From assembly GCA_963815115.1 (NCBI GenBank), contig CAWFFN010000005.1:1344001-1408000 (forward strand): a DNA stretch of 64,000 bases. The letters run 5' to 3'. Source of the stretch: an uncultured delta proteobacterium. Lineage in GTDB: Bacteria; Desulfobacterota; Binatia; DP-6. The position numbers were made by a program, and so were the translations under genes. The notes under the pieces were generated by a model. The model saw only the letters and a list, made by a program, of their open reading frames with translations, searched no databases and had not been told where the DNA came from. Positions 30,741 through 60,582 of the stretch are shown here, in pieces (position 1 is the first letter of the stretch; each line of letters opens with the position of its first letter).

Positions 30741-30844
30741 GCCCTGTGGGCAGCGCGTCGCAAACATGAACTGTCCGCTCAGCATCGGATTACCGACTGA
30801 TTCAGCGGTAGCGCCGCGGGAGGAGCCGATAGGAAGCCGATAGG

Positions 30845-32336
30845 CGTAGCAATGCAGACGGGCTGCCCTCCGCCGCGATAGGTTCGCGGTGGACCACGGG
30901 GTCAGCCGAGACGGCGCCCCAAGCATTGAGGAGGGCAGCCCGATGCAATGCTCCGTGGGATTGGACGTGCACAGCAAGGCGAGCGTGTTCGTGATCCAGG
31001 ACGGGCACGGGCAGGTGCGAGCGCAGGGGGAAATGTCCACGACCCCGGCCGGCTTCCGGGGCTGGCACGAGGCGCAGCGCCTGCCAGCGGGGACGCCCGT
31101 CGCCTTGGAGACCGGGACGGTGGCCTTTTTTGTCGCGCGCGAGCTGACGGCGCTGGGGTGCGCGCCGCTCGTGGTCGATGCCCGCGAGGTGCGGCTCAAG
31201 GCGCAGCGGCCGACCCAGAAGAGCGACCTGCGGGATGCGTTCGAGCTCTGCGACGGCTTGCGGCGGGGGATCGATCGCACCATCGTGCATGTGCCGCCGC
31301 GGCCCGTTGCCCGGCTCCGCGAGACGCTGGCGCGGCGCCGGCACGTGGTGCGTCTCGAGACCGCGCAGGTGAACGCCGTCAAACGGCTACTGCGAGGCGC
31401 GGGGCTGGCGCGCCTGAGCCGGAGTCTCGGGACTCTGGGGTGGGCTGTGCAGAGCTTCCCTAGTCGCCAGCTTGGCGGGCCACGGCGAGCGGCGCGACTA
31501 CGTCGCACCGCACCGCGAACTGTGGCGCTGCGCGCGCACGCAGCGGGTGGCACTGGAGGGCGCGTTGACCGTGCAGCTGGCCGCGCCCGCGTTCGCCCCC
31601 GCCCTCCGCCGGCTCCAGACCATCCCCGGCGTGGGGCCGATCGTCGCCGCCACCGTCCTGGCGGTCTTCTCCGACGTGCGCCGGTTCGCGGACGCGAAGC
31701 ACGCGGCCAGCTATGCGGGCCTGGTCCCGGCCACGTATCACTCGGGCGACCGCGAGGCCTACGGGCGCATCACGAAGCGGGGGTCCCGGGAGCTGCGCAC
31801 GATGCTGTGCGAGGCGGCCCACCATGCCAGTCGCCCGACCCATCCGTTCCACCCCTACTTCGCGCTGCTTTGTGCGAAGCGCGGCTACAAGATGGCGACC
31901 ATCGCGGTCGCGCACCGGCTCGCCCGGATCACGTTCGCCATGCTGCGCGACGGGACGGACTTCGACGTCGCGCAGCTCACTATCGAGGAGGGCCCGGTCG
32001 AACGCACGACCATCCGGCGCGACCGGCTGAAGCGGACCGCAACGCCCGCGTAGCGCGGCCGTTGCCCACGCCACTGCGCACCGCACTCGAGGACGAGCAC
32101 GTGACCCGGGTCGTCTCCTGAGCCACGAGCTCAGATAGCTGTTTGGGGCCGAGCTCTCCTCAGTGCAACGTGGGCCGCGCCCGCGACCCCGAATGGACGC
32201 TTGGTGAGTGCCGGCGCAGCGGACACACGTATCGGGACGATCCCGAGGCGGAGACTCACTCAACCCTCACGACGAGCGGCAGAACGATCAACAGACGGCG
32301 ACGTCGATGCCCCCCTGGACAGCCCGTCTTCATGGG
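30845..32336 (+). mobile_element. IS1111-group IS110 element, transposase (30943-32053) frameshifted
   Basis: GLDVH, LETG, KSD..DA, TIPGVG and YAGLVP..SG motifs; subterminal IRs ATGCAGACGGGCTG / CAGCCCGTCTTCAT; ~270-bp 3' non-coding region. Confidence 0.88.
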
Positions 32337-32417
32337 CGCGATGAACGGGGTTTTGCGAAGGTTTACGGAACGCCCCATCCCGGGCCATCGCCGCATTTTC
32401 GCCCGCTCCGTAACAAG
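32337..32417 (+). repeat. 90-bp element copy, right part (left 9 bp at 30836-30844, split by IS1111)
   Basis: 3 mismatches to the copy at 58431. Confidence 0.9.
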
Positions 32418-32751
32418 GCCGACGATACGCTTCGGGAGATCACCGCGTTCCTGGAGCAGTATCGCCGCGCCACCGAGGCTCACGATGTCGACGACCTCGC
32501 CGCCATGTACACGTCGTTCTCTCCAGCGCAGCACGCGGCGCTCGAACGCTACTTCGCCGGCGTGCGAGACCTCCGGATCGGGATCGATTCACGTGGAGGC
32601 CGCCGTGGTCGGCGAGGAAGCCGTGGTCAGCTACACGCGGACGGACGACTTCGTCGACGTCCAGACGGGGCGACCAGGGCACGTGTCGGTGCGGCTGACG
32701 AAGACGCTGCGGCAGGTGAACGGGCGGTGGCTGTTCGCGTCGGCACGGTGA
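32418..32751 (+). pseudogene. NTF2/SnoaL-like domain fragment
   Basis: Starts mid-frame right after the repeat: LEQYRRATEAHDVDDLAAMY...LRQVNGRW; one frameshift. Confidence 0.55.
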
Positions 32752-32823
32752 GGGTCATTGTTCGCGGACCGGGACCAGGCTGATCGGAGGCACGGCGGCA
32801 TCCGTAGAGTCGGGCGTCGGCCC

Positions 32824-33129
32824 TCAGGAAGCAGGTCCCAGCGGTTTCCGCTTCGTGTGGCGCACCGTCAGGAGGAAGACGGTCTCTTTCTCCACGCTGA
32901 ACAGAACGCGGTGCTCACGGCAGAGGAGCTGTCGGACCTCGACCCCGAACGCTTCAGATTCGGCCTCGGCTACCGGACAGCGACGGGGGAGAGTCTCCAA
33001 TCTCTCGATCGCCGCAAGGATGTCTGTGTGCCAGACATCCGCCCCCTGCGGCGAGCGCTTCTTGTACCACGCATACGCTCGGTCAATGTCTCGCTCGGCC
33101 CGTCGTGTGACCTCGACGCCGAACCTCAT
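32824..33129 (-). CDS. ParE/RelE-family toxin
   Basis: VEVTRRAERDI...LPRRCPVA...RVLF...VRH. Confidence 0.8.
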   Translation of the reverse strand: MRFGVEVTRRAERDIDRAYAWYKKRSPQGADVWHTDILAAIERLETLPRRCPVAEAESEAFGVEVRQLLCREHRVLFSVEKETVFLLTVRHTKRKPLGPAS

Positions 33130-33419
33130 GCGCTCCTGGGCAGCTTGTGCTTTCGGCGCATCTGCTCCAGAAAAGCCCGAGCAGGCTTCGTGCGGCCATG
33201 CTTCGCATCCTCAAGACCCTCGGCGACGGCGGAGAGGGTCTCGGCCTGATCAACTATGGCCATGATCCGCTCATAGCTGTCAGCGTCCATGACGACGGCC
33301 TTTGCCCGGCCGTTGAGCGTGAGGACGAGGGGACGCTTTGACCGCTCCAGGCGCTTGAGGTGATCCTTGGTGTTTCGTTGAAAGTCAGTGACGGGGAAGA
33401 TGTCGGAGAGCTGTACCAT
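33126..33419 (-). CDS. Phd/YefM antitoxin
   Basis: VTDFQRN...PLVLTLNGRAKAVVMD. Confidence 0.85.
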   Translation of the reverse strand: MVQLSDIFPVTDFQRNTKDHLKRLERSKRPLVLTLNGRAKAVVMDADSYERIMAIVDQAETLSAVAEGLEDAKHGRTKPARAFLEQMRRKHKLPRSA

Positions 33420-34965
33420 GTGCACCTCAGCAGGGAATTATCAGGTTTAAACTCGATACAGCGATCGGCTCTGGGCGTCAAGGCCGATAGATGGGGTGAA
33501 GCGGCTGGCGAGGTATGACCGGAAGTTGTGGATCGTGGAGTCCGTGACCCCGGCGGCGTATCCTCCCGCCTGATCGACCGCCGGCCCGTGGTGCGCGGAG
33601 GGAGGGAGGCGGCACGCATGCTGAAGGTCGTCGGCACCGAGACGGCGTAGGACGAGGGAGACGGGCGATCGCTGCTCGACGAGATCGCCCGTGAGGGAGC
33701 CCGCCGGATGCTCGTGGCGGCGCTGGAGACCGAGGTCACCGCGTATCTGGAGGCGCACCGCGAGGAACACGATGCCGAGGGTCACGCCTTGGTCGTCCGC
33801 AATGGCAAGGGTCGCACCCGGAAGGTGACCGTCGGGGCCGGGACGATCCCGGTGAGCGCGCCCCGCGTGAATGATCGGCGGACCGACCAAGACGGCGAGC
33901 GACGCCGATTCACGAGCCGCATCCTGCCGCCGTACATGCGCCGCTCCCCGAAGGTGGCCGAGGTCTTGCCCGTGCTCTACCTGCGGGGCCTCTCCACCGG
34001 CGACTTCCGCGAGGCACTGGCGGCGCTGCTCGGGGACGATGCGGCCGGGTTGTCCGCCACAACATCGCGCGGCTGACCAACGAGTGGGAGGTCGAGTACC
34101 GCGCGTTCCAGAAGCGGAGCCTCGCGGACCGCGACCACGTCTACGTGTGGGTCGATGGCGTCCACTTCAACGTCCGGCTGGAGGACGACCGCCTCTGCAC
34201 GCTCGTGATGATCGGCGTGCGGCCCGACGGGACGAAAGAGCTGATCACGGTCGAGGACGGCTACCGGGAGAGCGCCGAGAGCTGGAAGACCGTGCTCCGG
34301 GACCTGAAGCGCCGAGGCATGCGCCCGCCCGTTGTCGCCGTGGGCGACGGTGCCCTTGGGTTCTGGGCGGCGGTGCGGGACGTGTGGCCGAAGACCCGTG
34401 AGCAGCGGGACTGGTTTCACAAACTCGGCAACATCCTCGACAAACTCCCGAAGCGGCTCCAGCCGCGCGTGAAGGCCGCGCTCCACGAGATGATGTACGC
34501 CGAGACCCGTGACCAGGCGCGCGAAGCCGCGCAGCGGTTCGCCACCGACTAAGGTCCCAAGTATCCGAAGGCCGTCACGACCCTGGAGAAGGACGCCGAC
34601 GTGCTGCTCACGTTCTTCGACTTCCCCGCCGAGCACTGGAAGCACTTGCGGACGTCGAATGTGATCGAGTCGCCGTTCGCGACGGTGCGGCTGCGCCAGC
34701 GCGTGACGAAGGGCGCCGGCTCGCGCACGAAGGGCCTCTTGATGGCCTACAAGCTCCTGGACATGGCGCGGGCCCGATGGCGGCGGCTCGACGGGGCTCA
34801 CCTCCTGCCGCTCGTCGGAGCCGGCATCGTTTTCGTCGACGGGGAGCAGCAGCCACGCCAGGGCAGCAAGACGCGAGCGAGGGCCGCGTGATGGGCAGGT
34901 CCTCCGGATCAGCCCCCACCTCACCTTTCGCCGTTTCGTTGAAGCGGTAGAGGGGAAGTACTCCC

Positions 34966-35445: not shown

Positions 35446-35448
35446 TCG

Positions 35449-36105: not shown

Positions 36106-36293
36106 CTGCAACAGCGTCACCTGTCGCGCTGACGGATTGGCCCCAAGGCTGAGGCTACGCGTGCCGCACCGAGCGACCACGACCCAATCCACACCTTTTG
36201 ACAATTCCTCGCGGCTGGCCTCCACTCGCACGTGGTAGCCTGAGCCCCACAACGCTCAACGCGGTCGATGCCGCAGCGAAGAGGAGGCCAGCC

Positions 36294-37199
36294 GTGGAAC
36301 ATATTGGCATGGACGTGCACAAGCAGGAAACCCAGGTCTGTATCGAGGACGCCACCGGCACCGTCGTGCTCGAGCAACGGATCCGCACGACGCCCGAGCG
36401 GTGCACCGCCCTGCTGGGCGGGCGGCCGCAGGCGCGCATCCTGCTCGAGGCCGCGACCGAGAGTGAGTGGGTGGCCCAGCACCTCGAGACGCTCGGCCAC
36501 GAGGTGATCGTGGCCGCCCCGAACTACGCGGCGATGTACGCGACGCGGTCGCGGCGGGTGAAGACGGACCGCCGGGACGCCCGCACGCTGGCCGACGCGT
36601 GTCGGTTGGGGGCCTATCACCCCGCGCACCGGACGTCGGCCGCGCAGCGCGAGGTCCGCGCGGAGCTCACGGTGCGGGAGGCGCTGGTCCGGACCCGGAC
36701 GCGCTACCTGAGTGTGATCCGGGCGCTGCTGCGGCGCGAGGGGATGCGGGTGCCGAGCGGGGGCGCGGCGGCCTTCGGGCGGCGGCTGGCGGCGGTCACG
36801 CTGCCGCCGGCCCAGCAGGCGCTGATCGCGCCCCTGGTGGCGTTGCTTGAGCCGCTCAACGCCGCGATGGCCGCGGCGGACGCGCGCGGCCTCCGCAAAG
36901 GGGCGCCGGGGCTCAAGCCCGTGCTCATTCAGGGCGCCTGGGCCGCAGTGCGGGGCCGCGAGGGGTACCTGCGCGCCCAGTTCCTCCGCCTCAAGCCGCG
37001 GCGCGGGCCGATGAAGGCCATCGTCGCGGTGGCCGCCTCCATGCTCACCGCCGCCTACTACATCCTGCGCGACGGCCAAGACTATCACGACCTCGGGGCC
37101 GATCACTTCCGGCGCGGCGACCACGCCCGCCTCGTCGCTGGGCTCACCCGCCGCCTGCACCACCTCGGTTATGAGGTTACCCTCCGCCCCGCCGCCTGA
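36294..37199 (+). pseudogene. IS110-family transposase, internally deleted or chimeric
   Basis: HIGMDVH, LEA and KTDRRDA N-terminal half joined directly to the LRKG...KAIVAVA tail; the TIPG/YAGL-SG segment is absent. Confidence 0.8.
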
Positions 37200-37229
37200 G
37201 GTCGCCGGCGGTGCGAGTTACTTGGTAGT

Positions 37230-37415
37230 CCGGGCGTCGTCGGCCAGCAGCCCACGCTCGCGCGCGGTGAAGCGCATCGCTACACCAGCGGCGCGGTGCT
37301 CGCGACACCTTTCGGCACGATGGAAGGCACCTACGAGATGCACACCGAGGGCGGCCGCGTCTTCCAGGCCCGCATCCCCCGCTTCTCGCTCCAGGTGCCC
37401 GGCATCCTCCAGTAG
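37230..37415 (+). pseudogene. apaG: ApaG C-terminal fragment
   Basis: GVVGQQPTL...YTSGAVLATPFGTMEGTY...IPRFSL, starting just after the IS110 end. Confidence 0.8.
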
Positions 37416-37874: not shown

Positions 37875-37946
37875 TCGCCGGGAACCGGAGCCGGGCCGCC
37901 CGGCTCCGGCGATCCGCTTCGCGTGCTTGCACGCGGGATATGCGCG

Positions 37947-43121: not shown

Positions 43122-43213
43122 GCCGATAGGACGCAAGAAGGGGGCATTCGCCCTTCGCGCCTACCAGCCATCTGCCCCAGGCGCGTCTACTAGCCGCCGC
43201 CCTGCCGTAACGA
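43122..43213 (+). repeat. Highly diverged 90-bp element copy (ends conserved)
   Basis: GCCGATAGG-N6-GAAGGGGG...GCCGTAAC at about the same spacing. Confidence 0.55.
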
Positions 43214-43250: not shown

Positions 43251-43325
43251 GGGCGCCGTCTCGGCTGACCCCGTGGTCCACGCGAACCGTATCGCGGCGG
43301 AGGGCAGCCCGTCTTCATTGCTACG
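43251..43325 (-). mobile_element. Solo left end of the IS1111 element
   Basis: The reverse complement nearly matches 30845-30919. Confidence 0.85.
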
Positions 43326-43463
43326 GCTGTCTGCCGTAACCAGGTCGGCACGAGCACGTAGCGGGGCGTTGGTTGATTTTCGACACCGCCCTCGCTGATG
43401 GCATGACGTAACGCGCATCGGCGTAGTCGTCGCGCGAGGGGGTGCCGGCGCGGGTCAGCGCTG

Positions 43464-45545: not shown

Positions 45546-45638
45546 GCAGATAGGCGCGATGAAGGGCCTTTTTCCGCGAAGGCTTAGAGAACGCCCCCTG
45601 CTCCGACGTTCGCTGAGTTTTCGCCTGCTCCGTCACAG
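45546..45638 (+). repeat. Diverged 90-bp element copy
   Basis: GCAGATAGGCGCGATGAAGGGCCTTTT...GAACGCCCC...TTTTCGCCTGCTCCGTCACA. Confidence 0.8.
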
Positions 45639-47969: not shown

Positions 47970-49454
47970 ATGCGGTTTCAAATCGTCTCTCACGCCGGTC
48001 TGCTGGTCGAAGGCTCCGGAGTCCGGCTGCTGTTCGATCCATGGATCCTGGGCAGCACGTACTGGCGCTCCTGGTGGAACTATCCCCCCGTGACGCGCGC
48101 CCTGATCGAGAGCCTCAAACCGGATTACATCTACCTGACCCATACGCACTGGGACCACTTCCAGGGTCCCTCGCTGCGAAAGTTCGGCAAGGACCAGAAA
48201 ATCCTGGTTCCGCGCTCGCCCAACAGGCGGATGTGCCGGGTATCGAAGCAGATGGGCTTCACTAGCGTCACCGAGATCGACCACGGAACGTCGCTGCAGC
48301 TGGCTCCGGACTTCCGCATCAGCAGCTACCAGTTCAATCTCTTCATGGACAGCGCTCTGGTCGTGGAGACCGAAGGGGTGACGCTGCTCAACGCCAACGA
48401 TTCCAAGTTCATGGGCGAGCCTCTCGGCCAGATCCTGCGCACGCACGGCGGAATCGACTTCGTGTTTCGCAGCCACAGCTCGGCCAACTCGCGGTTGTGC
48501 TACGAGATCATCGATGACCCGACCGAAGTCGTCGATGATATCGAGCGGTACGTGACGGACTTCGCGAACTTCGCGGTCGCCTCCGGCTCCCGCTACGCTA
48601 TTCCTTTCGCCAGCAATCATTGCCATCTGCACAAGGATGTGTTCCGCTTCAACGACCTCGTGATGACCCCGCAACGCGTCGTGGAGTACTTCGAGCGCAA
48701 GGGCATCCGCACCCCCGAAGTCAAGATCATGGTTTCGGGCGACTCCTGGTCGAGCGACGGCGGCTTCGACGTGCCGCCGAACGACTTCTTCGAGAACCGC
48801 GATCGACATCTGGCGCAGTACCTGGAGCAGAAACGCGACGTGCTGGAGAAGTTCTATGCCCAGGAGGCGAGCTCCACGCTGACGGTCAAGCAGGTGGACA
48901 ACTACTTCAAGAAGTTCACCGCGGCGATCCCGTGGGTCGTCCGTCGCCGTTACAAGGACCGCCCGATCTGCTACGTGTTGAGCGCGGGAGAGCGCAAGCT
49001 GCTGTTCGAGGTCGACATCTACCGGCGCACCGTTCGGGAGTTGGAGCGGTTCACCGATGCGTCGCACCCGATGCAGATCCACACGTCGGTTTTCATCCTG
49101 AAGCAGTGCATGGGTCTCGATCTGTTTTCCCATCTGGCGATCAGCAAGCGCGTGCGCTACCGGGTGACCTCGGCTCGCAAGAAGTACATCGTGTTGCTCA
49201 ACCTACTGTTTAACGGCTACGAGTACGAGATGCTCCCGTTGCAACGCATGCTCAGCCGCCGCTTCGTCGGCGTTTGGCTTCGACGCTGGCGCGAGTGGGC
49301 ACTGTACGTGCGGATTGCGTTGAGCTTGACGCTGCGCCGAAAGTTCGACATGGCGGACTATCTCCCCGCGGCCCGTCCCAAGCTCGAACCCTCGGCGACC
49401 CGGGCTCGACGTGCACAAGGCGAGCGTCACGGCGTGTCTCCGCTCGCCCGGTGA
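47970..49454 (+). CDS. MBL-fold metallo-hydrolase (UlaG / CMP-Neu5Ac hydroxylase-like)
   Basis: SHAGLLVE, DPWI-GS, THTHWDH, MDSAL, NANDSK and IPFAS motifs; the C-terminus runs into an IS110 remnant. Confidence 0.75.
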   Translation: MRFQIVSHAGLLVEGSGVRLLFDPWILGSTYWRSWWNYPPVTRALIESLKPDYIYLTHTHWDHFQGPSLRKFGKDQKILVPRSPNRRMCRVSKQMGFTSVTEIDHGTSLQLAPDFRISSYQFNLFMDSALVVETEGVTLLNANDSKFMGEPLGQILRTHGGIDFVFRSHSSANSRLCYEIIDDPTEVVDDIERYVTDFANFAVASGSRYAIPFASNHCHLHKDVFRFNDLVMTPQRVVEYFERKGIRTPEVKIMVSGDSWSSDGGFDVPPNDFFENRDRHLAQYLEQKRDVLEKFYAQEASSTLTVKQVDNYFKKFTAAIPWVVRRRYKDRPICYVLSAGERKLLFEVDIYRRTVRELERFTDASHPMQIHTSVFILKQCMGLDLFSHLAISKRVRYRVTSARKKYIVLLNLLFNGYEYEMLPLQRMLSRRFVGVWLRRWREWALYVRIALSLTLRRKFDMADYLPAARPKLEPSATRARRAQGERHGVSPLAR

Positions 49455-49640
49455 CGGGGCCCAGCGCCGCGAGGAGGTGCGGATGTTCGGCACCACGACG
49501 CACGAGCGCCGGCTGCACGCACGTCGCGCTGGAGTCGACGGGCGTCTGCTGGCGGCCGGTCTACAACCTCCTCGAGGGGCGCGTCGCGCTGGTGCTGGTG
49601 AACGCCCAGCACGTCAAAATGGTGCCGGGCCGCAAGACGG
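49400..49640 (+). pseudogene. IS110 transposase N-terminal fragment
   Basis: GLDVHKASVTAC...VALESTGVCWRPVYNLLE...VPGRKT. Confidence 0.8.
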
Positions 49641-49805
49641 GCCCCTCGCAGAAGCTGTCCGGACACTCGGCGCTGTGCGTGCATGGATTCCCCGCGTTGG
49701 AGCCGCCGAAGCAGACGAGGCCACCGCAGTCCGGCGGATCGGCGCAGGCCGTCTGGCACCGGCTCTCGAACCTCTTGCGCGCCGTCTCGTAGCAGCCGGA
49801 CGTCG

Positions 49806-49894
49806 GCCGATAGGAGCGATGAACGGGGTTTTGCGAAGGTTTACGGAACGCCCCATCCCGGACCTTCGCCGCATTTTCGCCCGCTCCGTAACAA
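49806..49894 (+). repeat. 90-bp element copy
   Basis: Identical to 58431-58519. Confidence 0.95.
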
Positions 49895-49990
49895 CGGGAG
49901 TTCGGCTCTCCTCGGCACTTTTTCCGCTTGCCATTGAATGGTGTGGATCGATCGATTCAGCGACTCAACAGTGAGCCAGTGCCAGTAGAG

Positions 49991-50775
49991 TCACTGCGTC
50001 TCTGAGGCCGGCTCGACTGTCACTGGCACCGTGACGACGACCCCGGCGTTCCGCACGAGGACGTTCGCTGCCCCGACCGTCATCGACCTGATATCCCCGG
50101 ACTCGGAAACAGTCACGATGCGGCTGTCGCTCGAGGTGTACGTCGTGGCCTTTGCGGAGTGGACATCGCGATCCACACCGTCGCTGTAGTGCCCGACGAC
50201 ATAGAGGGTCTGCTCGTCGTCAGGCCCGCGAAGCCTGACGCTCGGCGGTGCGATCTTCAACGATTCCAGCGTCGCAGACGGCACCACTTCGAGCGTCCGT
50301 TCGATCGGCATGGCGAGAGCTCCGGAGGCATCCTCGGGCACGATGACGATCCCGAATTTCCCAGCGGCGTCCGCCGGCACCTTGATCCGGACCGTAGCTG
50401 GCAGCGCCGTCACCTCAGCGACCTGCGGGTCACCCAGACTCATCACGCTCACGCTACCGATAGTGGGACCCGGGAGACTCACCAGGCTCACCTCGACGAC
50501 GTCCCCCGGCGCTACGACATGACCGTTCTTTGGACTCTGGACCGCGACGAGCCGACTGGTGGTCTCACCTGGCAGAATTGGAATCATGTGGCGTTGCGCT
50601 GGCGGACTCGCCGCGAACCCGCTCCGAGGAATCGATGCCACGCCCGGTATGGCCGCCAGGCAGACGAGGAGCCGCAGAACCGGCCTAGTCACATGACATC
50701 TGCTACGTCTACGTGCTTGCGCTCTCGTACCCACGGTCTCCCCTCGCGTGCGGTGATCCTCGTACTCTGACGACA
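49991..50775 (-). CDS. Secreted Ig-like (Big_2) domain protein; start uncertain
   Basis: Hydrophobic leader; YSDG...YTSSDSRIVTVS-G...GAANV. Confidence 0.6.
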
Positions 50776-51111
50776 TATCGCTCCCAAGCGTGTCACGAGT
50801 CTCTGGCCTCTGAGGGAGCCGCCTCCACCTCGCCCCGCGCTGGTCCCTGGGGGCCCGACCCGGAGGAACACGAATCACGGCGCTGCTTGCGGACGTACGT
50901 CGTGCCAAGCGGTACGAAACCACGGACGGCGCCCGCCTCCGCCGGGTCGTCTGAACGCCGTGATCTCTGCAACGCGGCTTCTGAGGATGGTCGCGATCTC
51001 CCCGGTGGGGCAGCTGCCGGGGCGCACCTAGATGACCTTTGGCAGATGGGCGACATGAAGCAGATAGGCGACCTGAAGGCCCTTTTTCGCAAAAGGTGAC
51101 GGAAAGGGTCT

Positions 51112-52600
51112 GGTACGAAACTGATCGGCACACCTCAAGCGGCGGGCCGCAGTTCGACGGCGTAGCCGAGTTGGGTGAGGCGGCGCACGAGGCGGGCGGC
51201 GACGCGGCGCTTGTCGCGGCGGTCGAAGTAGTGAGCGCCGAGGTCGCAGTAGTTGGTCGCGGCGCGCAGCATGTGGTAGGCGGCCACGAGCATCGAGGCG
51301 GCCACCGCGATGATGGCTTGCTTCGGCCCGCGCCGCGCCTTGAGGCGCACGTACTGCGCCTGGACGTAGGAGTCCTTCACCTTGATGGCGGCCCAGGCCG
51401 CTTGGACGAGCGCGGTCTTGAGCCACCGGCCGCCCTTGCGGACGCGGACAGAGCGGCGCTTGCCGGCGCTCTCGTCGAGGCGGGGGCAGAGGCCGGCCCA
51501 CGCCACCAGGTGCCCAGCCGTGGCAAACCGCGTCATGTCGCGGCCGATCTCGGCGCGCAGGCTATGCGCCGTCGTCGGGCTGATCCCGGGGATGGTCGTG
51601 AGCCGCTCGACGACGAGCGCAAAGGGGGCGCGCGCATGGGTGATGCGCTCTTCGACCTCCGCGATGGCGTGATCGAGCTGGGCCCTGCGCTCGAGGTGGA
51701 GGCGCCACTCGAACCGATGGTAGTCGGTGACCGTCCCGTGCAGCGCCGCGGTCAGCGCGGCCCGCGGGGCCTGGACCCGGGTGGGGACCAGCGCGGCCAG
51801 GCGCGCCGGGTCCGTCTCCCCGTCCACCCGTGCCGCCAGGATCGCGCGCCCCGCGCTGCCGAACACGTCCGCCAACACGGTGGCGAGCTTGAGGGTGGCG
51901 TCCTCCAAGACCTTGTGGACGCGCTGCGCGTGCCGGGTATGCTCGCGCACGAGTTGCGTCCGGGTCCGCGTGAGCCCCCGGAGCTCCTGCGTCGCCGCGG
52001 CGGGCACGAAGCTCGGCCGGATCAGGCCATGCGCGAGCAGATCCGCCAACCACGCCGCATCGCGGACGGCGCTCTTGCGCCCAGGCACGTTGCGCACCGC
52101 GGTCGCATGGGCGAGGACGAGTTCGACGGACCCGGCCAGGACGTGCCAGACGGGCTTCCAGTACACCCCGGTCGACTCCATCACGACGTGGGTGACCTCG
52201 TGCGTGCGCAGCCAGTCCCCGAGCGCGAGCAGGTCCCGCGTGCACGTCCCGAACTCCCGGGTCTCCCGGCGCACCGCCTTCCGCGTGGCGCGTCGCACGC
52301 AGGCGACGACCGTCGCTTGATGCACGTCGCGGCCGGCACAGCGGGCAGGCCACACCTCCATCGTGTGGCCCTCCTTCTGCGACGGCGGCGCGGGCCCCGC
52401 GTCATCGAAGCCTGGGACGCGTGCTCTGGCGACAGCGACGTCGCCGTGGCGACAGTCCGGGGTGCTCGCAAGGTCCCTGGCTCAAACTTATCGACGGGCT
52501 CGGAGGCACCACTCCATTTCCCGAGCTCTCCGCCGCCGTGGCGTTCCAGCGTACCACGGTTTCGTGCGCCAGGGTGGGGCCGCAGGGGCCATGAGCAACT
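51112..52600 (-). mobile_element. IS110-group element (transposase 51135-52361) with ~240-bp 5' non-coding region
   Basis: Full-length ORF with DVH, MESTG, TIPGI and AGLCP..ESAG motifs; CT dinucleotide at both boundaries; the KTD position reads KSA, so it is probably inactive. Confidence 0.85.
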
Positions 52601-52629
52601 TATCCGACGCATCTCGGCGCTCCGAAGGA

Positions 52630-52845
52630 TAGGAAGATGTCGCGGCCCGCCGGTGTCTTGAGGTCGAGGGTCATGCTGCGCTTGTTGCGCGCCAGGAACG
52701 GGATGCCCATGCCGAAGGGGTCGCGCGGCGCGGTCAGCACGAGCACGTCCATGCCGAGATCGGCGAGAAGCGTCGAGCAGAACGGCCCCGGCAGCTGCCG
52801 GGACAGGTCGAGCATCTTGAACCGGCCGAGAGGGAGCGTGGGCAT
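52630..52845 (-). pseudogene. CaiB/BaiF CoA-transferase N-terminal fragment
   Basis: LDLSRQLPGPFCSTLLADLG...RNKRSMTLDLK. Confidence 0.8.
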
Positions 52846-52936
52846 GCGTGTCCCGCGTCTTAGCAAAGCCCGCTCGGCGAAGGCCAGCAGCGCGCACAGC
52901 GGGGGGCCGGCCTCGTGTGGCCGGCGAGATCCGTCG

Positions 52937-53389
52937 TCAGGGAATGGCGGGCACCGTGTCGCAGTCGAGGATGGTGAACGTGGCCGAGATGCCGGGGGCC
53001 AGCCCGGACCCGGTGTCACCCGGATTCAACTTCCCGCTGTTCGGCCGGAAGACCGCGGTGTAGTGCGACGGAGGAAGGCTGCTGATGGCGGCCCCGCCGA
53101 TCCCCACGCTGACCTCGGGGACGTCGATCGCGATGGCCGCGAACGTGCCCGCCGCGTTCATCACCAAGATGGCGGTGGCCGGGCTCGCCTGACCGAACCG
53201 GTCGATGCGCTGGCCGGGTGAGAAGCTCACGGCGCGCTTCTTGAGCTTCAGCTTCGGCAGCAGGAACTGCGCCGAGCCCGGGCTCACGCCGACGCAGAAC
53301 TCCGCGCGCGCGGGCCAGGGGGAAAGCGCACCCACCAGCAAGGAGGAGAGCAGGCTCGCGGTCATGGTCGATCGATGTCGCCAGGTCAT
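52937..53389 (-). CDS. Secreted hypothetical protein
   Basis: Signal peptide ending ARA; one Cys near each end of the mature chain. Confidence 0.55.
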   Translation of the reverse strand: MTWRHRSTMTASLLSSLLVGALSPWPARAEFCVGVSPGSAQFLLPKLKLKKRAVSFSPGQRIDRFGQASPATAILVMNAAGTFAAIAIDVPEVSVGIGGAAISSLPPSHYTAVFRPNSGKLNPGDTGSGLAPGISATFTILDCDTVPAIP

Positions 53390-53551
53390 CTCCGGTTCCT
53401 TTCACGTGCGGCCGTCGCACGGAGCCAAGCACGCGCGTAGCACGGCCGTCACGTCTCTGGCAAGAAAATCACGATCCCAAATGGACGTCTTGACGCCCGC
53501 CCGACACGGTGTGTGCGATCGGTCTCGAATCGGATGGCGGCTCGGCGATGG

Positions 53552-53641
53552 GCCGATAGGAGCGATGAACGGGGTTTTGCGAAGGTTTACGGAACGCCCC
53601 ATCCCAGACCTTCGCCGCATTTTCGCCCGCTCCGTAACAAG
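53552..53641 (+). repeat. 90-bp element copy
   Basis: 1 mismatch to the copy at 58431. Confidence 0.95.
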
Positions 53642-53792
53642 TCGCGTCGCTCCTTGGCAGGACCAGCGCAGCGACCACGAGCGCGGTCGCCGTCGCCTCT
53701 TTCCAGGATGGCCATCCCATTCCACTGTTCACAATTGTCATGCCGGCCACGTTGAGGAGGGAACCCGGCGATCGCGACGTGCGGTCGATCCG

Positions 53793-53996
53793 CTACTCGC
53801 TACAGCGCTCGACCCAGCGGTGCCCGCACGGGCAGACGCGGTGGAAGTGATCGCCGCGCGCCTCGGCACAGTCACGATCGAAGTTCACCCGGATCAGGCG
53901 GCGGTTCCCGCAGCGAGCGCAGCGGGCGCGCATGTTGGTGAACGGCGGGAGGTCTGCTTCCTCGACGGGCGCGGTCGTCATGGGCGCGTCTACCAC
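53793..53996 (-). CDS. Small Zn-ribbon protein
   Basis: CARC...CPCGH. Confidence 0.4.
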   Translation of the reverse strand: MVDAPMTTAPVEEADLPPFTNMRARCARCGNRRLIRVNFDRDCAEARGDHFHRVCPCGHRWVERCSE

Positions 53997-54668
53997 GGCG
54001 GGGGCGACGACGAGGGGTGTTCACGCCGGCCGCCTGACACGCGCCATGCTGACGCCCGCGTCGCCCGGCTACCGCGACCGCGCCCTGCTGCGCCTCGCAT
54101 GCTGGGCGGTGCATCGTCTGCGGGCGCGCGCCCGCTGCTCGTCGCCGCCGGCCTGGTGCAGATGATCGACGGCGCCCCGTATCTCGAGACCGCGCCGGGC
54201 ACCAAGATCCGCCTGCCCGGCGTGCTCGATGCCCCGCCGCGCTGCGGCGCTTTGGCGCGCTCCTCCTCCTCGCGGTCGAGGAGGCGGGCCTCGCGCCCCG
54301 ACGCGGCACGGTCGCGCCACCGCCCACGGCGACGCCCTTCGTGCGCGCCCAGGCCCGGCGCCGCGCCGCCGCCCGCGTGCTCGCGCGCCGCTGGCTGCTC
54401 GGGGAGCTCGACGGCGAGGTCGTCGTGCCGATCACGGTGGCGTGCAGTGCGCTGGGCCTGGACCCCGAGGCGCTCGCCGATGCCGTCCGCCTGCGGAGCA
54501 CCCGCCCGCTGCGGCAGCCACGCGCCAGCGCGCCCCCCTGCGGCCCCTGGCGGAGCGGCGGCGGGCCGCGTGCGCGCCCGCGCTCCGCCGGCCGGCCGGG
54601 GCGCAGGCCGCCGCCCGGTGAGGGGCGGCGCGCGGGGGAGCACGACGATGCAGAAACAGGCCCGCGGG

Positions 54669-54986
54669 TCAGTGTCCGAGTGCCACGAAGTTCTCGCAGT
54701 CGGCGATTGAGATTATGGTCCCGTCGGCTGCGTAGCCGAGGGGGACCGCGCAATACACTCCCCCAACGTCGGTGAAGACGAAGCCCGGTTGGTCGTACAC
54801 CCCGAGCTCGTGGCACACACACGCGACCTTCATCTTGGCGGGAGTCTTCTGCCCGGGGGTAAATTGGGGAGCGACCTTCCCGATCAGCCTGTTGAACGTG
54901 TCCTGGTCGGTGGCGGCAGCAGGCCTCGCGGTGACCCCCCCCGCCAGCACGGCCAGCAGCCCGAGTGTCCAATACCGATGTGTCAT
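54669..54986 (-). CDS. Small secreted 4-Cys protein
   Basis: GGAGG RBS, signal peptide, CVC...C...C. Confidence 0.55.
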   Translation of the reverse strand: MTHRYWTLGLLAVLAGGVTARPAAATDQDTFNRLIGKVAPQFTPGQKTPAKMKVACVCHELGVYDQPGFVFTDVGGVYCAVPLGYAADGTIISIADCENFVALGH

Positions 54987-55622
54987 TGGCGCATCCTCCT
55001 TACTGTCTCCGGCCGGCGACCTGTTCGTCGGCGTTCACTCCGGGGGCGTTCAAACCGATCGAACAATGTACGGTCCGGGGTCGCGGGCCGGCGCCGCGAC
55101 GGCGGCGACGTGACTGCGGCGCGTCGACGCGGGTCCTTCCCGGTGGCGCCTGGTCGGCGAGGCGACGCCCTGCCAGGGGCGCCTAGCGATAGGCTCGTTG
55201 AATCCTTGACACCCGACGCGGCGCCGGCACCACCCGCGAGGGGTCGCGTGGCGCTCGTCACGCAGGCGAATTACGCGCGCCGTCGGGGCATTAGCCGCGA
55301 GGCGGTGCGGCAACGGGCTGTCACGGCGGGGGGGCCGGTGCCTGTCCACGGGCCACGGAAGTTGCTTGACGTCGCCGAGGCCAACGCCCTGTGGGAAACG
55401 ACCAAGTCGACGGCGGGGGCGTTCCACACCAACGGCACCGGTGTGAGACTGCGGACCTCGGGTCACCTGGAAACCGTCGGGCTAGCCACGCACGCGGATT
55501 CCTCCGGGTCTTGTGCGATGCCCTCGGCCTCAATGCCGGCGTGCTCGCGGCGGCGGTGCGATGCCCGCAAGGTGCAATGACCAGCCTCGCGGTCGTGTGG
55601 TTGCCTGTGAAACAACTACACC

Positions 55623-56267
55623 GTGATGAAGTCACAGCTGACACATCGGTTCATCGGAATTGTGCACACCGACACCAAGTACCAGCTATTCAATCTAATC
55701 AACATGAGCCGAAGCAGGACCCCGGAGCTCAAGTTCACGTTCAAGAACGACGGCGTGTTCCCGGGGCCAGGACCATTGATTCGTCATCGGGGGTTCGAAG
55801 TTACGTATCACGCTGACGCCGCGACCCACTTCAAGGCGGGTGGTAGGTACAATGCGAAGGGTCGCAAGTTACCGGTCGACAGGATTCGCAATCCGTTCGT
55901 CGTGTTTCAGGTCATAGTGCAGAAGTACACGAGTCTGCCGAAATTTGCGGGTGAGATCCGTCGGCCAAACCTTCCAATCCCACTCCAGTTCTTCGACGAC
56001 GGCGTCCAGATTGACGTGTACCTCCATAGTGACGGCGTTCCGGCAACGATGTGGGTAGAGGTGCTGAATTCCGATCCCAGCTTCACGCCAATGTCCGCGA
56101 CCACTTTGAAAGTCCCCTCGTGGAGACTCGGGCTGACGGTCGTGTGCCATTCGATCGATCCCGTGCTTCGCCGCTTGCACGAGCGACACGGACACAACAT
56201 CGTTGGGCTTCCTCGTGGGCTTTCCTCATACGTCCCGAACGGGTCCGGGTTCGGTATCAAGGACTAG
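55623..56267 (+). CDS. Hypothetical protein, lower GC than its surroundings
   Basis: 214-aa ORF with atypical codon usage. Confidence 0.55.
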   Translation: MMKSQLTHRFIGIVHTDTKYQLFNLINMSRSRTPELKFTFKNDGVFPGPGPLIRHRGFEVTYHADAATHFKAGGRYNAKGRKLPVDRIRNPFVVFQVIVQKYTSLPKFAGEIRRPNLPIPLQFFDDGVQIDVYLHSDGVPATMWVEVLNSDPSFTPMSATTLKVPSWRLGLTVVCHSIDPVLRRLHERHGHNIVGLPRGLSSYVPNGSGFGIKD

Positions 56268-56279
56268 GTGATCGCACGG

Positions 56280-56724
56280 TCACGAGCCACCACGAACAGC
56301 GCGCACGTAGTACTGGTTGAAGGTCTTGTCGAAGGGGTTCATGTAGGCGTCCGTACTGTTCACGCCCCACGCTACACTCGGCGAGAGCTCGTAGGTCGCC
56401 GACGACCAGTAGGCGAACTGCTCCGTGCACGAGCAGGTCAGGACGGTGCAGCCCGGCGCGCAGGCCGTGTCGAACGCGGGCGCGATCGACGGGAACAGCG
56501 CGCCGTACACCGTTAGGGTCACCAGCTCGTTGATGTTGGGCAGCCGCCAGTCGGTGAAGCCGGCGAAGCCGCTGCCCCCGTTCAGCGTCGTGATCTTCCC
56601 GAACGCGCCCGCCCACGCATACGTGTCGTCCTTGTCGTGCACGCTGCCGTCATCCGACAACTTCTCCCACATCAACCCGGTCGTCATGTCGGTGATCGTG
56701 CCGTTGCTGTTGTCGACGTAGACG
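56280..56724 (-). pseudogene. DUF1566 domain, 5'-truncated by the 90-bp element
   Basis: YVDNSNGTITDMTTGLMWEK...DWRLPNINEL...YWSS...VRAVR. Confidence 0.85.
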
Positions 56725-56814
56725 GCCGATAGGAGCGATGAACGGGGTTTTGCGAAGATTTACGGAACGCCCCATCCCAGACCTTCGCCGCATTTTCGCC
56801 CGCTCCGTAACAAG
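56725..56814 (+). repeat. 90-bp element copy
   Basis: 2 mismatches to the copy at 58431. Confidence 0.95.
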
Positions 56815-56877
56815 GTGAGCTTCTCCCGGGGCGGCATCACGGCCGTCAGCGGGTTCGGGACCCTCGCCGACCTCGGA

Positions 56878-58143
56878 TCACCGCCCTGCCGCCACCAGCG
56901 CAGCGACCGTGAACCAGTCGTCGGTGATCCCGGCCTTCTCGCCCTGGTGGAAGTACCACCCCTGCTCACCCGGGAACCGCGGGCTCGGCAGCGACGCCTT
57001 GGTCGCGTGCTCGAGCTGCAGATCGACCATGACGATGGCCGGCGCGAAGGGCATCTCGTCCTCGTACACGATCGCGTTGCTCCCGGGAACCGACTTCCGG
57101 AAGCTGAGGTCGTTGATCCAGAGCTTCCACAGCTCTCCGGAGCGGTCGTAGATGTCGCTGAACGGGATGCCCCAGTACTCCTTGTCGATGAAGAGCACCC
57201 GCTTGGAGTACGCATACTGGGGCAGCTTCGACGTGCCCTCGATGACGTACACCTTGCGCTTCTCCCACACGTCGTCGAAGGCCCAGTCGACCTTGGAGTG
57301 CCACTTCACCGGGAAGTGTTCTGCGTGTACCGCACCCAGGACCTCCTTCTCACCGAGGTACTTCCAGTCCATCCAGGAGACTTGCCCGGCGTAGCCGTAG
57401 TAGCTGTCGACGTCGGTGTCCTGGCCGAAGAGCGCGTCGGAGCGCTGCGCCGTCGAGAGCCGCCGCACGCGCCGCAATGACGGCAGGTAGAGCCAGGAGT
57501 CGTCCTGCTTGCCGGTGTCTACGTAGCGGTTGCCGAGCGCGCCCACCCCCTTCAGGTCGAAGGGTTCGAGGATCGGATACAGCCCCTGCTGCACCCGGTA
57601 GCCGTTCGGGTTCGGCTTCTCGGGCTTGGGATCGACGTAGAGTCGGGCGGTCCAGAACAGGCGGCGCAGATGATCGAGCAGGAAGTGACGCTCGACCGTC
57701 ATCGGGCCGTTCTGCGGGATCGTGCCCGTGTCGGCGTCGAAGTTGCGCAGGTCGGTGTCGTCAAGCCCGTTCGCGAACCCGTACTCGTAGTTCCACATGA
57801 TCTTGAGGGCGAACTGCGGGTCCTTGGGATCGAGGTTCGGGAACGGCTGGCCGGCGACATAGTTGCTCACGGTGAGGCCGTCCGCCGACAGCTTCACCTG
57901 CGGCGCGTACTTCTCGGTGGCCTCCTTGTACGCCTTCGGCCACTCGACCCGCTTGGTCTCCCCGACCGTGATCGGGAATCCACGCTTGATGCACCACTCG
58001 AGGCCCGGCGAGATCAGGTCTTTTGCCTTCGCCACGTTCGTCCCGTCGATCTTGTCGCCGGGGACAACGTCGGCATGCACGCTCGCGGCGAGCGCCGACA
58101 GGACCAGTGCGATTGCGGCATACCAGGAACGACCCATGTTCAT
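56878..58143 (-). CDS. DUF1329 periplasmic protein
   Basis: Signal peptide; G-PFP, WLYLPSLRRVRR and YDRSGELWK motifs. Confidence 0.9.
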   Translation of the reverse strand: MNMGRSWYAAIALVLSALAASVHADVVPGDKIDGTNVAKAKDLISPGLEWCIKRGFPITVGETKRVEWPKAYKEATEKYAPQVKLSADGLTVSNYVAGQPFPNLDPKDPQFALKIMWNYEYGFANGLDDTDLRNFDADTGTIPQNGPMTVERHFLLDHLRRLFWTARLYVDPKPEKPNPNGYRVQQGLYPILEPFDLKGVGALGNRYVDTGKQDDSWLYLPSLRRVRRLSTAQRSDALFGQDTDVDSYYGYAGQVSWMDWKYLGEKEVLGAVHAEHFPVKWHSKVDWAFDDVWEKRKVYVIEGTSKLPQYAYSKRVLFIDKEYWGIPFSDIYDRSGELWKLWINDLSFRKSVPGSNAIVYEDEMPFAPAIVMVDLQLEHATKASLPSPRFPGEQGWYFHQGEKAGITDDWFTVAALVAAGR

Positions 58144-58430
58144 CGGCTCTCTCCTTTGGCCTTCCCTCGCCGACGCGGCGATGAGCGGAAGGTCGGCGAT
58201 CGACCCGTGACGTCCTCGACGGTCGCCGCCCGTTTGTCGATTGTCTCGGGCGGAACTTCGCGGAGGCCTCTCTGGGTCATCCTCCATTCATTCGCGCATC
58301 CCACCTCTTCTTCGGGCACTTGCGGAGCAACGATCATGCCCTCCGCCTTCCCCTGGGAGTACACCCGGGAACGCGGCAACCCAGCCGCATCGGTCGGAAT
58401 GAAACGGCCGTCTTTTCCCAACCCCGCGAA

Positions 58431-58520
58431 GCCGATAGGAGCGATGAACGGGGTTTTGCGAAGGTTTACGGAACGCCCCATCCCGGACCTTCGCCGCATT
58501 TTCGCCCGCTCCGTAACAAG
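58431..58520 (+). repeat. 90-bp element, reference copy
   Basis: GCCGATAGGAGCGATGAACGGGGTTTTGCGAAGGTTTACGGAACGCCCCATCCCGGACCTTCGCCGCATTTTCGCCCGCTCCGTAACAAG. Confidence 0.95.
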
Positions 58521-58819
58521 TGCAAGTTAAGCATGCGTAAACGTAGGGAATAGACGTAGCATCTTGTAGACCTCACCGCATATCCTGAACGGTCTGGCTT
58601 CTCGCCATGCGGATGATGGGAGTGCCGTTCTGGTCCGGCCAGCGTCAGGTAGATGTTGGTCCCGCTCATCTTCTTGATGCCCTGGGCCTGCAGCTGCTCC
58701 ATGGCCTGTTCACGCTTCGCATAAGTCCAGCCGTTGAGCGGTCGCCGTGCTCCCCGGCGGGAACGTCCTTCGGTGTGGAGCGACCTCCTTGTTTCAGGGC
58801 TCGCCGGTAAAGGACATTA

Positions 58820-60110
58820 TGGTCTTGCCCCGTCCGGGCGAACACCTGAGTTAAGCCGCTGCGCGGCGATTCCAGTATCGGTCCTCGTAGTCGACGGGGC
58901 TCATCATGTCGATGGCTGAGTGCCGACGCTGGCGGTTGTAGACGGCTTCGATCCAGTGAACGGTCGCCGTCCGTGTGCGAGCCCGGGTCGGCCATGACCG
59001 GGGCTCGATGAGCTCGAGCTTGTAGGTCGCGAAGAAGGACTCGGCGAGGGCGTTGTCCCAGCAGACGCCGGTCTTTCCCATTGACTGTTTCACGCCGTGC
59101 GCATCGCACAGTGCCCGGAACTCGGCCGAGGTGTATTGGCTTCCCCTGTCCGAGTGGAAGATGACACCCTCAACGTTTCCGCTGCGCGTAGCGACGGCCA
59201 TCATCAACGCATCGCACACGAGCGATGCGCGCAAGTGACCGGCGAGGGAGAATCCGATCACGCGACGCGAGAAGACGTCGATGACCGTCGCCAGGTACAG
59301 CCAGCCCTCCCACGTGCGGATGTAGGTGATGTCGCCGACCCACAGCATGTCGGGGGACGGCGCTTCGAACTTCCCATGCACGAGATCGGGGATCGCCGGC
59401 GGTGTCGGTTCCGGTGTCGTCGTACGGACCCAGCGCGGTGGGCGACGACCTCGCAGGCCCGCTGCCTTCATCAACCGCGCTACGCGCTTGCGGCCGACCT
59501 CGTGGCCCTGGGCCTGCAACTCAGCCAGCACGCGGGGCACGCCGTATTGGCCGTCCGACGCCGCATGGATCGCCTTGATCTTCGCCAGCAGTGCCGCATC
59601 GTCTCGTTCACGCTGCGACGGCGGCCCGTCCTGCCACTCGTAGTAGGCGGTGCGGGAGACCTGGGCGATCCGGCAAAGCTGCGTCACCGAATACCGACGA
59701 CTCTCCGCCTCGACGAACCGGTACCGGCTCATCGGGTCTCCATCGCGAAGAAAGCCGCCGCCCGCTTCAAGATGTCCCGCTCGTCGCGGAGCACCCGCAC
59801 CTCGCGCCGCAACCGCCGCAGCTCCTCGCGCTCCTCGGTCGTCAGCCCCTCCCGTTCGCCCGCGTCGACCGCCACCTGCTCGACCCAGCGGCGCACCGCC
59901 GTCTCGCTCAGGTCCATCTCCCGACAAATCGTCGGGATCGTCCGGTCACCCTGTCGCACCAAGGCGACGACCTCGGCCTTGAACGAACTCGTGAACGATC
60001 GCCGTGGGCGGCGACTCGCTCCCTTGCCCTCCACCTTCTTCCGCATCCGAACACCCTCCTCGTGGGCTCACGCCCACATCTGGGGTGTTCGCCGGTCGGG
60101 GGCAAGTCCA
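58820..60110 (-). mobile_element. Intact IS3-family element (orfA 59729-60046, orfB 58851-59732)
   Basis: TG...CA IRs; TTA TSD at 58817-58819 and 60111-60113; WVGDITY, HSDRGSQY and DNALAESFF DDE motifs; ATGA coupling of the two ORFs. Confidence 0.95.
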
Positions 60111-60182
60111 TTATCATGCATGAAAGAGACGGGTTTTTGTGGAAGGGGGGTCGGAAGTTTTATGGTGGATCAGGGAACGCTA

Positions 60183-60489
60183 ATGGACGGCGGCGGCGGG
60201 CGCGCGGTGTGGGAAGTTGCGGTTGTCGAGAGGCCGCGCAGCCGCGCGGCGGAAGTTCTGGCCAGTGTGCCGGCGATCATTGCCGGCGCCGGCGAGAAAG
60301 CGGCGTGGCGGTTCCTGGAGTTCTTCACGGCGAACATCCGGAACAAGAATACCCGCCGGGCCTATGCGCACGCCGTACGGCTGTTCTGCGCCTGGCTTGG
60401 CGAGCGCGGCATCAGCGACCTGGCTGCCGTCAACCCGGTGCTGGTGGCGGCCTATGTCGAGCATCTCGGCCGCGAGCTCTCCAAGCCCT
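60183..60489 (+). pseudogene. Tyrosine recombinase N-terminal fragment
   Basis: AGEKAAWRFLEFFTANIRNKNTRRAY...VAAYVEHL...SKPS, ending at the repeat; catalytic domain absent. Confidence 0.8.
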
Positions 60490-60582
60490 CTTGTTACGGA
60501 GCGTGCGAAAATGCGGCGAAGGTCCGGGATGGGGCGTTCTGTAAGCCTCCGCGGCAAAAGGCCCTTCGTCGTGCCTATCAGC
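60490..60582 (-). repeat. Diverged 90-bp element copy, inverted
   Basis: CTTGTTACGGAGCGTGCGAAAATGCGGCGAAGGTCCGGGATGGGGCGTTC...CCTATCAGC. Confidence 0.9.

Follow-up and report, generated by a model that had tools for sequence, protein, structure and literature searches.

A 90-nt repeat at the edges of captured genes in an uncultured soil bacterium: a probable origin-end stub of an IS91-like element and a target of IS110-family elements

What is a repeat of only ~90 nucleotides (nt) that stands where fragments of unrelated genes meet? The question is raised by a 64,000-nt stretch (hereafter the window) of contig CAWFFN010000005.1 in the assembly GCA_963815115.1 of an uncultured delta proteobacterium. 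The window corresponds to C5:1344001-1408000 in a genome of 12 contigs and 6.9 Mb. An earlier note, made from the sequence of the window alone, had described copies of this non-coding repeat, here called E, and had put forward two readings, a recombination site or a one-ended transposition end by which captured fragments are stitched to one another. Our analysis supports the transposition end. E probably forms the outer ~90 nt at the oriIS end of a rolling-circle element of the IS91/ISCR type, here called ISY2, and its solo copies would be transposase-less stubs at the edges of copied chromosomal DNA. Furthermore, at least three lineages of IS110-family (bridge-RNA) elements have E as their insertion target, at fixed positions.

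The repeat E and the junctions at its ends

E reads GCYGATAGG...CCGTAACA[AG] and is a real repeat family. Within the window, a repeat search returned a 97-nt family at 32326, 49804, 53550, 56723 and 58429 (identity 85-100%), and a 37-nt core occurs five times at ≤1 mismatch, versus none expected from 100 shuffles. Across the genome, BLAST revealed 17 strong copies and one weak match, and an iterated nhmmer profile revealed 18 strong copies, every one with an E-value < 1e-20. Two clusters were found, at C5:1376330-1419081 and C9:318220-428696 (nine copies each), together with some diverged copies elsewhere. Fifteen of the strong copies are on the plus strand and three on the minus strand; in the window, only the copy at 60487 faces the opposite way, in agreement with the earlier description.

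The profile additionally matched 45542 (E-value 3e-23), half of a copy at 51058-51104 and, on the minus strand, 60487 (6e-29), which bears out the diverged copies previously placed at 45546, 60490 (inverted) and 51060. The diverged copy at 43122 was barely detected (E-value of 5.5, in a run on the window only); by reading, both of its ends are those of E (GCCGATAGG...CCGTAAC), and its interior differs from that of E and is common to a copy at C8:~54400. Subtypes A (GCCGATAGGAGCGATGAACGGGG...) and B (GCTGATAGGCACGACGAAGGGCC...) differ in their left halves and are identical in their right halves, and in subtype C (43122-43213 and C8:~54400) the E ends alone are retained. The copies in the window are as follows:

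30826..30845, plus strand: left terminus of E, GCCGATAGG, twice in tandem, split from the remainder by the IS110-family element ISx
32337..32417, plus strand: rest of the copy split by ISx, type A, ending ...CCGTAACAAG
43122..43213, plus strand: diverged copy, type C, ends kept, interior different
45546..45637, plus strand: diverged copy; left-flank homology to C12:578156-578295 stops exactly at its left end
49806..49894, plus strand: copy of type A; left flank is an N-terminal fragment of an IS110 transposase (49402-49690)
51052..51109, plus strand: left part of a diverged copy, E_w, split by the IS110-family element ISw
52601..52628, plus strand: right part of E_w
53552..53640, plus strand: copy of type A
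56725..56813, plus strand: copy of type A; the Lcl_C/DUF1566 gene on its left is cut at 56724
58431..58519, plus strand: copy of type A
60491..60582, minus strand: copy of type B, inverted

Both ends of E are conserved as the earlier note had described them. All copies start with G-N-N-GATAG, and most finish with CCGTAACA and two variable bases, which in the 18 strong copies are AG (11), AC (3), GA (2) or GG (2). The end point of all 18 lies within 2 nt after CCGT(A/C)A(A/C)A. The base at position -1 of the E terminus, compared in 30 copies, is G (15), A (10) or T (5) and never C, which hints at a cleavage preference. E has no terminal inverted repeat by reading, and no target duplication was found around the 18 copies (longest flank match, 3 nt); the previous rejection of a simple insertion of a miniature inverted-repeat transposable element therefore holds. 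The internal dyads that had been pointed out are present, but the folding of E is no better than that of shuffled sequences on either strand (z of -0.17 and -0.77). The possibility of an Rfam match came to nothing, as a search of the window gave none for E at the gathering score and the tmRNA gene at 19908-20260 as the only match. Because E folds like shuffles and matches no Rfam family, a reading of E as an RNA was dropped.

Comparison of the window with its own genome by BLAST indicated that the segments beside E are often copies of DNA located elsewhere, and that the homology breaks exactly at the ends of E. The following segments and fragments adjoin E:

32418..33484, plus strand: captured segment, 96% identical to C12:574507-573442, reaching from the right end of E to a degenerate E left end (GCCGATAGATGG, ~33483)
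52632..53469, no strand assigned: captured fragment that includes the initial ~75 codons of a CoA-transferase gene; paralogues and relatives are homologous from 52631-52633 onward
56816..58430, minus strand: captured unit with a whole DUF1329 gene and flanks, 94.4% identical to C7:228686-230300
60267..60490, plus strand: N-terminal (SAM-like) part of a tyrosine recombinase, truncated by the inverted copy of E

The alignment of the DUF1329 unit with C7:230300-228686 comprises 1617 positions; it opens 2 nt beyond one E and closes on the base that immediately precedes the following E, and at the C7 source locus the sequence runs on uninterrupted past both junction points. Since this source locus is preserved at 94%, both capture junctions can be read to the base. 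The homology of 32418-33484 to C12 stops after ...GTCAAG, i.e., ends in CAAG, and that of 45406-45545 to C12 stops at the left end of E (45545). Matches to five relatives end at 49805 and at 56724, and five matches begin at 52631-52633; the homology of 49639-49805 (to G001:C13) and of 56358-56724 also breaks at E ends.

The broken genes beside E are those of Lcl_C/DUF1566, the CoA-transferase (first ~75 codons), the tyrosine recombinase (N-terminal domain) and an IS110 transposase (fragment). Accordingly, the breakpoints reported earlier at DUF1566 (56724), at the tyrosine recombinase (60491) and at 45545 were confirmed, the last as the point where homology to C12 ends, whereas in place of the Cys-rich fragment claimed to the left of 49806 we found the IS110 transposase fragment. 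The observation that the other flank does not continue the same gene was also upheld: no E copy with both flanks contiguous elsewhere (an empty site) was found in the own genome or in five relatives, so E bounds unrelated pieces. Five E copies are arranged head to tail from 49806 to 58519, with every unit reaching up to the terminus of the following E.

Degenerate-pattern scans of sequence collections returned few E copies, from one metagenome-assembled genome and six metagenome contigs, and a search of relatives found E in three of 40 other genomes. On C9, a diverged E-like copy (C9:1186279-1187014) lies directly beside a tyrosine recombinase gene (PF00589, 38.8 bits), which recalls the recombinase fragment cut at 60491.

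ISY2, the probable parent element, and the origin of the stubs

Several metagenome copies of E have right-hand sequence in common with the copy at C5:1418991, and in the genome studied here this sequence leads into an open reading frame (ORF) of 474 aa. It is the only match to PF04986 (Y2_Tnp) in the 6.9-Mb genome (7.9e-21; Zn_Tnp_IS91, PF14319, at 6.7e-16), and its product is ~40% identical to plasmid genes annotated as IS91-like/ISVsa3 family transposase. The E copy at C5:1418991-1419079 is located ~400 nt beyond the 3' end of this Y2-HUH transposase gene, antisense to it; the copy attached to a transposase that the earlier note had proposed to look for thus exists, 11 kb outside the window. 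The full copy of ISY2 (G000:C5:1418991-1421090, to the right of the window) comprises, in the transposase sense, the gene, ~400 nt and the reverse complement of E, ending ...CGCTCCTATCGGC at the boundary. The other boundary, C5:1421090, is fixed by a truncated copy in genome G003. With both boundaries located, ISY2 is therefore ~2.1 kb long and E is its transposase-distal end. The ter-side end (...GCGGAGGGTGACC up to the boundary) is unlike the E end, i.e., the element has two unlike ends. In IS91, the transposase-distal side is oriIS, according to PMC13181058.

The same layout as in ISY2 was found on the metagenome contig L029, with E, a conserved spacer and the transposase 3' end. Of the 301 genomes sampled from the class, at least 84 encode a homologue of the transposase, and 13 of 29 homologous transposase loci of other genomes have a match to the E profile at the same relative place and in the same orientation (E-values of 6e-12 to 1.2); among the 19 listed non-self matches, four fall elsewhere. 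The aligned ends from homologous loci have in common the GATAG terminus and a central TTGACrTAAC...TATCGGAC block. Beside the type B copy at C9:428602, a fragment of an IS91-like transposase lies on the same side and in the same orientation as in ISY2. In addition, the downstream end of ISVsa3 on an Escherichia coli plasmid (...GGGCGTTTATTCTTCCTATAC, beside a truncated glmM) resembles the reverse complement of the E terminus (...CCCCGTTCATCGCTCCTATCGGC); judging by its position and by what is known of this element, that end is probably the oriIS of ISVsa3, an element also named ISCR2.

The solo copies of E align with the native ISY2 end from the terminus inward, as a continuous right-end piece with an intact outer terminus, and their inner end is CAAG in 11 of 18 copies, which is CTTG in the transposase sense. 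CTTG is the commonest IS91 tetranucleotide in the account given in PMC13181058. According to the same source, rolling-circle transposition in the IS91 family starts at oriIS and stops at terIS, and termination fails frequently, which leads to one-ended transposition that takes neighboring DNA along. The tetranucleotides are written on opposite strands in the two sources, as CTTG/GTTC in PMC13181058 and as GAAC/CAAG in PMC3189936, and the correspondence of the inner CAAG to such a site is thus tentative. Relative to E, the captured DNA occupies the side that in ISY2 holds the transposase gene; the unit of E and segment therefore looks like ISY2 with its body replaced by other DNA.

As we reconstruct the transposition and the building of the array, the Y2-HUH transposase, acting in trans, would nick at the E terminus. 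Early termination at CTTG would yield 90-nt stubs, and read-through past CTTG would take neighboring DNA along by one-ended transposition. New units would then be joined at the nick site beside the terminus of a resident E, and the result would be head-to-tail arrays of the E-segment-E-segment type with exact junctions, without duplication and without inverted repeats. Two metagenome contigs, L030 and L031, have a longer stub, consisting of E and 57 further native bases with no adjacent transposase gene; the stubs are therefore not all of one length. A bolder proposal, which we regard as doubtful, is that the arrays are a working gene-capture platform. The transposase would prefer the terminal nick site of the resident 90-nt stub, E-primed units would pile up in order like cassettes without an integrase, and IS110 guides would have evolved against three words of the stub to ride this platform.

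Several observations weigh against the derivation of E from ISY2 by one-ended transposition. The matches to the E profile in distant loci are individually weak (9 of 13 with an E-value > 0.01). At the C9 type B copy, the transposase fragment is ~380 nt nearer to E than the gene is in native ISY2. No target tetranucleotide of the IS91 kind (CTTG/GTTC) abuts the E terminus in 30 copies, where the only regularity is the missing C at -1; the native ISY2 copy alone has CTCG there. The same native copy has CAAC, not CAAG, at the inner boundary of E, which could be the reason why this copy stays whole. On C9, the copies are 1.5-49 kb apart and form a loose cluster, not a tight array, and the right ends of captured segments have no clear common termination motif (CAAG once, otherwise CGAA, GAGG and others). 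Finally, no unit of E and segment was found twice in the genome; in view of this and of the lack of an empty site, the mobility of such units is only inferred.

IS110-family elements that target E

The two IS110-family elements inserted in E copies of the window are:

30846..32336, plus strand: ISx, a degenerate member of the IS110 family; transposase frameshifted (30943-32053), left end short, right end ~280 nt; inserted after GATAGG of E
51110..52600, minus strand: ISw, an intact IS110-family element with a transposase gene at 51135-52361 (408 aa); a second copy is at C8:220336-221900 (98.5%)

ISx is placed after GCCGATAGG, which stands twice at 30826-30845, and the rest of E resumes at 32337; the earlier note had correctly treated 30836 and 32337 as parts of one copy. 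ISx-like left ends follow GATAG(G/C)-like words in six of six cases, including five others in the genome. These left-end fragments (CGTAGCAATGAAGACGGGC...) are located in the window at 43251-43334 (minus strand) and at C5:76393, C5:232955, C5:230895 and C8:121648, each after a GCAGATAG(C/G)-like word. The genome yielded no ISx transposase in intact form.

The product of the ISw gene (51135-52361, minus strand) is 71% related to the protein of ISc9, the third lineage. It contains the domains DEDD_Tnp_IS110 and Transposase_20 and corresponds to NF033542 ("IS110 family RNA-guided transposase"). The differences between the two copies of ISw crowd just outside GGATA-AG/TTGCTC... and ...CGTACC-AG/ (the slash marking the boundary). 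Removing ISw in thought restores a diverged, inverted E, and ISw lies in E in two of two copies. ISc9 is ~1.48 kb long, encodes a 408-aa protein and follows each of four type B copies of E on C9 in copies that are 99-100% identical (with E, C9:341963-343534, 352679-354250, 366037-367600 and 428602-430179). In all four it begins directly after ...CCGTAACA-AG and ends in ...CTTGGT-AG. One left-end fragment related to ISc9 adjoins a type C copy of E. The ISc9 copy at C9:366037-367690 is flanked on both sides by type B copies of E (E-ISc9-E), so two E copies stood there in tandem, or nearly so.

When the left ends of ISc9 and ISw were aligned, two homologous stretches were seen to co-vary with the junctions of each element:

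ISc9: stretch 1, CTAACAAG; target-left, CGTAACAAG; stretch 2, CTTGGTAG; own right end, CTTGGTAG
ISw: stretch 1, TCGATAAG; target-left, TCGGATAAG; stretch 2, CGTCCCAG; own right end, CGTACCAG

Judging by these sequences, the stretches are candidates for the left-target and left-donor guides of a bridge RNA, with AG as the putative crossover dinucleotide; this is the pattern expected from the description of bridge RNAs in PMC11208160. Since the guide-like stretches match the target-left and the own right end, E lies outside the IS110 elements, as their target. We also considered E as the own left end of ISc9, with the solo copies as its remnants, and rejected this because the guide-like stretches put the ISc9 boundary after E, because a related left end follows a different subtype of E, and because E has ends unlike those of ISc9, in contrast to the boxes of ISPpu9/ssr9. 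Minimum-free-energy folds of the IS110 left ends were uninformative.

Insertion at a fixed position and in a fixed orientation in a short repeat, an AG crossover and guide-like stretches in the left end are features that ISc9 and ISw share with ISPpu9 and IS621 in repetitive extragenic palindromic (REP) sequences; the ISPpu9/ssr9 modules are described in PMC12288879. The difference is that the targeted repeat is here the end of another transposon and not a REP sequence, and that E, unlike ssr9, has no boxes resembling the ends of the IS110 element. Further fragments of IS110-family transposases occur in the window at 36294-37228, 47112-47873 and 49402-49690 (all plus strand), the first with the same right end as ISc9, ...GAGTTACTTGGTAG.

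Alternative origins, known systems and other features of the island

The solo copies of E might be leftovers of complete IS91-like copies, their look and flanks having arisen by deletions and by homologous recombination between the 90-nt repeats and adjacent insertion sequences, with no one-ended transposition at all. Most genomic fragments of IS801 were judged to be rearrangement products and not products of one-ended transposition, according to PMC3189936, a judgment that also counts against our own interpretation. The islands are rich in IS110 and IS3 copies and fragments able to drive rearrangements, and the missing duplicate of a unit points the same way. Random deletions, however, would not halt at one base, yet all 18 strong copies end within the same 2 nt, 11 of them with AG; moreover, exchange between E copies cannot make the first exact junctions of E ends with DUF1329-type DNA. 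We therefore consider this explanation unlikely. It is also conceivable that the bridge recombinases of IS110 elements made the exact junctions, the ends of E being RNA-guided targets to which one-sided (half-matched) recombination joined unrelated DNA, thereby building the arrays. The placement of ISc9 after CCGTAACA-AG in its four copies, of ISx after GATAGG and of ISw inside a diverged E agrees with this, as does the match of the left-end stretches to the own target-left and own right end (CTAACAAG and CTTGGTAG versus TCGATAAG and CGTCCCAG). One-sided matches and growth of IS110 loci are reported in the preprints 10.64898/2026.08.14.744561 and 10.64898/2026.08.31.748434. This origin nevertheless appears quite improbable to us. 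The left boundary of E is 9 nt left of the ISx crossover, so no IS110 element seen here cuts there; the source sequences have no AG core at the junctions (GGGT/TGAGC and CCCGC/GCCGA); and the same E end is native to IS91-like elements of other genomes, in which such IS110 elements were not looked for.

An integron-like cassette system, in which E would be an attC-like site served by a tyrosine recombinase, is suggested by the cassette-like segments in the same orientation, by the recombinase fragment adjoining the inverted copy at 60491, and by the fact that IS110-family elements target attC sites. By reading, however, E contains no paired RYYYAAC/GTTRRRY core sites. The 18 genome-wide matches to tyrosine recombinases include no intact one in the C5 cluster and one in the C9 cluster, and none serves the C5 array, while the fragment at 60267 is cut by E and does not serve it. 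The attC reading was rejected from the ends of E and the list of tyrosine recombinases, and its probability seems to us very small. We also give hardly any credence to the explanation that the junctions are assembly mis-joins at a repeat. A search of public sequencing runs revealed one soil run (0.36 of words), and four public runs compared with 49000-61000 yielded short contigs with no joints, none of which bridges an E copy; their loose ends belong to the paralogous C7 locus, and they speak neither for nor against the junctions or circular forms. Against mis-joining, the repeat is only 90 nt long, the genome is in 12 contigs, copies of E differ by single bases, and the same kind of junction is present in other assemblies.

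The stub interpretation has its closest parallels in IS801 and in the ISCR elements. In Pseudomonas syringae pv. phaseolicola, right-end pieces of IS801 of 229, 360 and 679 nt that end in the consensus tetranucleotide were trapped experimentally as mobile miniatures, and IS801 was also observed carrying adjacent DNA, as reported in PMC3189936. Like E, these miniatures, as described there, are continuous right (ori)-end pieces with a common outer terminus and no transposase gene, and a full copy coexists with them; their inner end lies at the consensus tetranucleotide, to which the CAAG of most E copies may correspond. In contrast, E is far shorter (~90 nt) and occurs in ~18 copies per one full element, head to tail around captured segments; it has no target tetranucleotide beside its terminus, and its mobility is inferred. 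ISCR elements resemble ISY2 in the transposase (~40% identity), in the ori end downstream of the gene, in a related ...TCCTAT... terminus and in the foreign genes captured alongside. Known ISCR arrays, however, repeat the whole element or long truncated copies, whereas here just the 90-nt stub is repeated and the cargo is drawn from the ordinary chromosomal genes, whole or fragmentary, of a soil bacterium. Eukaryotic non-autonomous Helitrons may be compared with E as rolling-circle HUH elements without terminal inverted repeats or target duplication that pick up gene fragments by termination read-through; the domain of life and the enzyme architecture differ, and the likeness is one of analogy only.

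One-ended transposition, right-end miniatures and gene capture by IS91/ISCR elements are already known. New here are the extreme reduction to a 90-nt stub, the recurrence of this stub, in an uncultured soil lineage, as the border of captured genes and gene fragments of the chromosome, the source locus kept at 94% identity, and the targeting of three separate words of the stub by as many IS110 lineages. The literature search was not aimed at proving absence, and we do not present 90-nt ori stubs or the targeting of IS91 ends by IS110 elements as unpublished. The IS91/ISCR elements owe their reputation chiefly to the resistance genes that they move on plasmids of clinical bacteria, and their pickup of neighboring DNA has been worked out on few examples. 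In this soil bacterium, what is apparently the same process is seen in minimal form, with a 90-nt origin stub repeated around copied chromosomal genes of an ordinary kind. For the RNA-guided IS110 recombinases, the terminus of a different transposon is a natural target of a new kind. Should the array-building step prove real, it would be a bacterial counterpart of the gene-fragment capture of Helitrons.

Some other features of the region deserve a brief description. The tmRNA gene at 19908-20260 (plus strand; Rfam RF00023, 185.6 bits) is followed, from ~20.3 kb rightward, by mostly short, low-scoring ORFs according to a codon-usage gene caller, so the E-bearing island may begin at the tmRNA gene. 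One further mobile element is a later insertion and not part of E:

58820..60110, minus strand: IS3-family element (HTH_Tnp_1 orfA, rve orfB)

Copies of this element that are 100% identical are located at C8:386824-388114 and C8:737190-738480, so it was probably active recently. Large Cys-rich proteins composed of 165-nt repeats (CNGxDDDCDGxxDE; Pfam Cu-binding_MopE, six stretches) are encoded at 60853-63637 (plus strand) and at C5:1405924-1413077, and several diverged Cys-rich paralogues are found just beyond the window.

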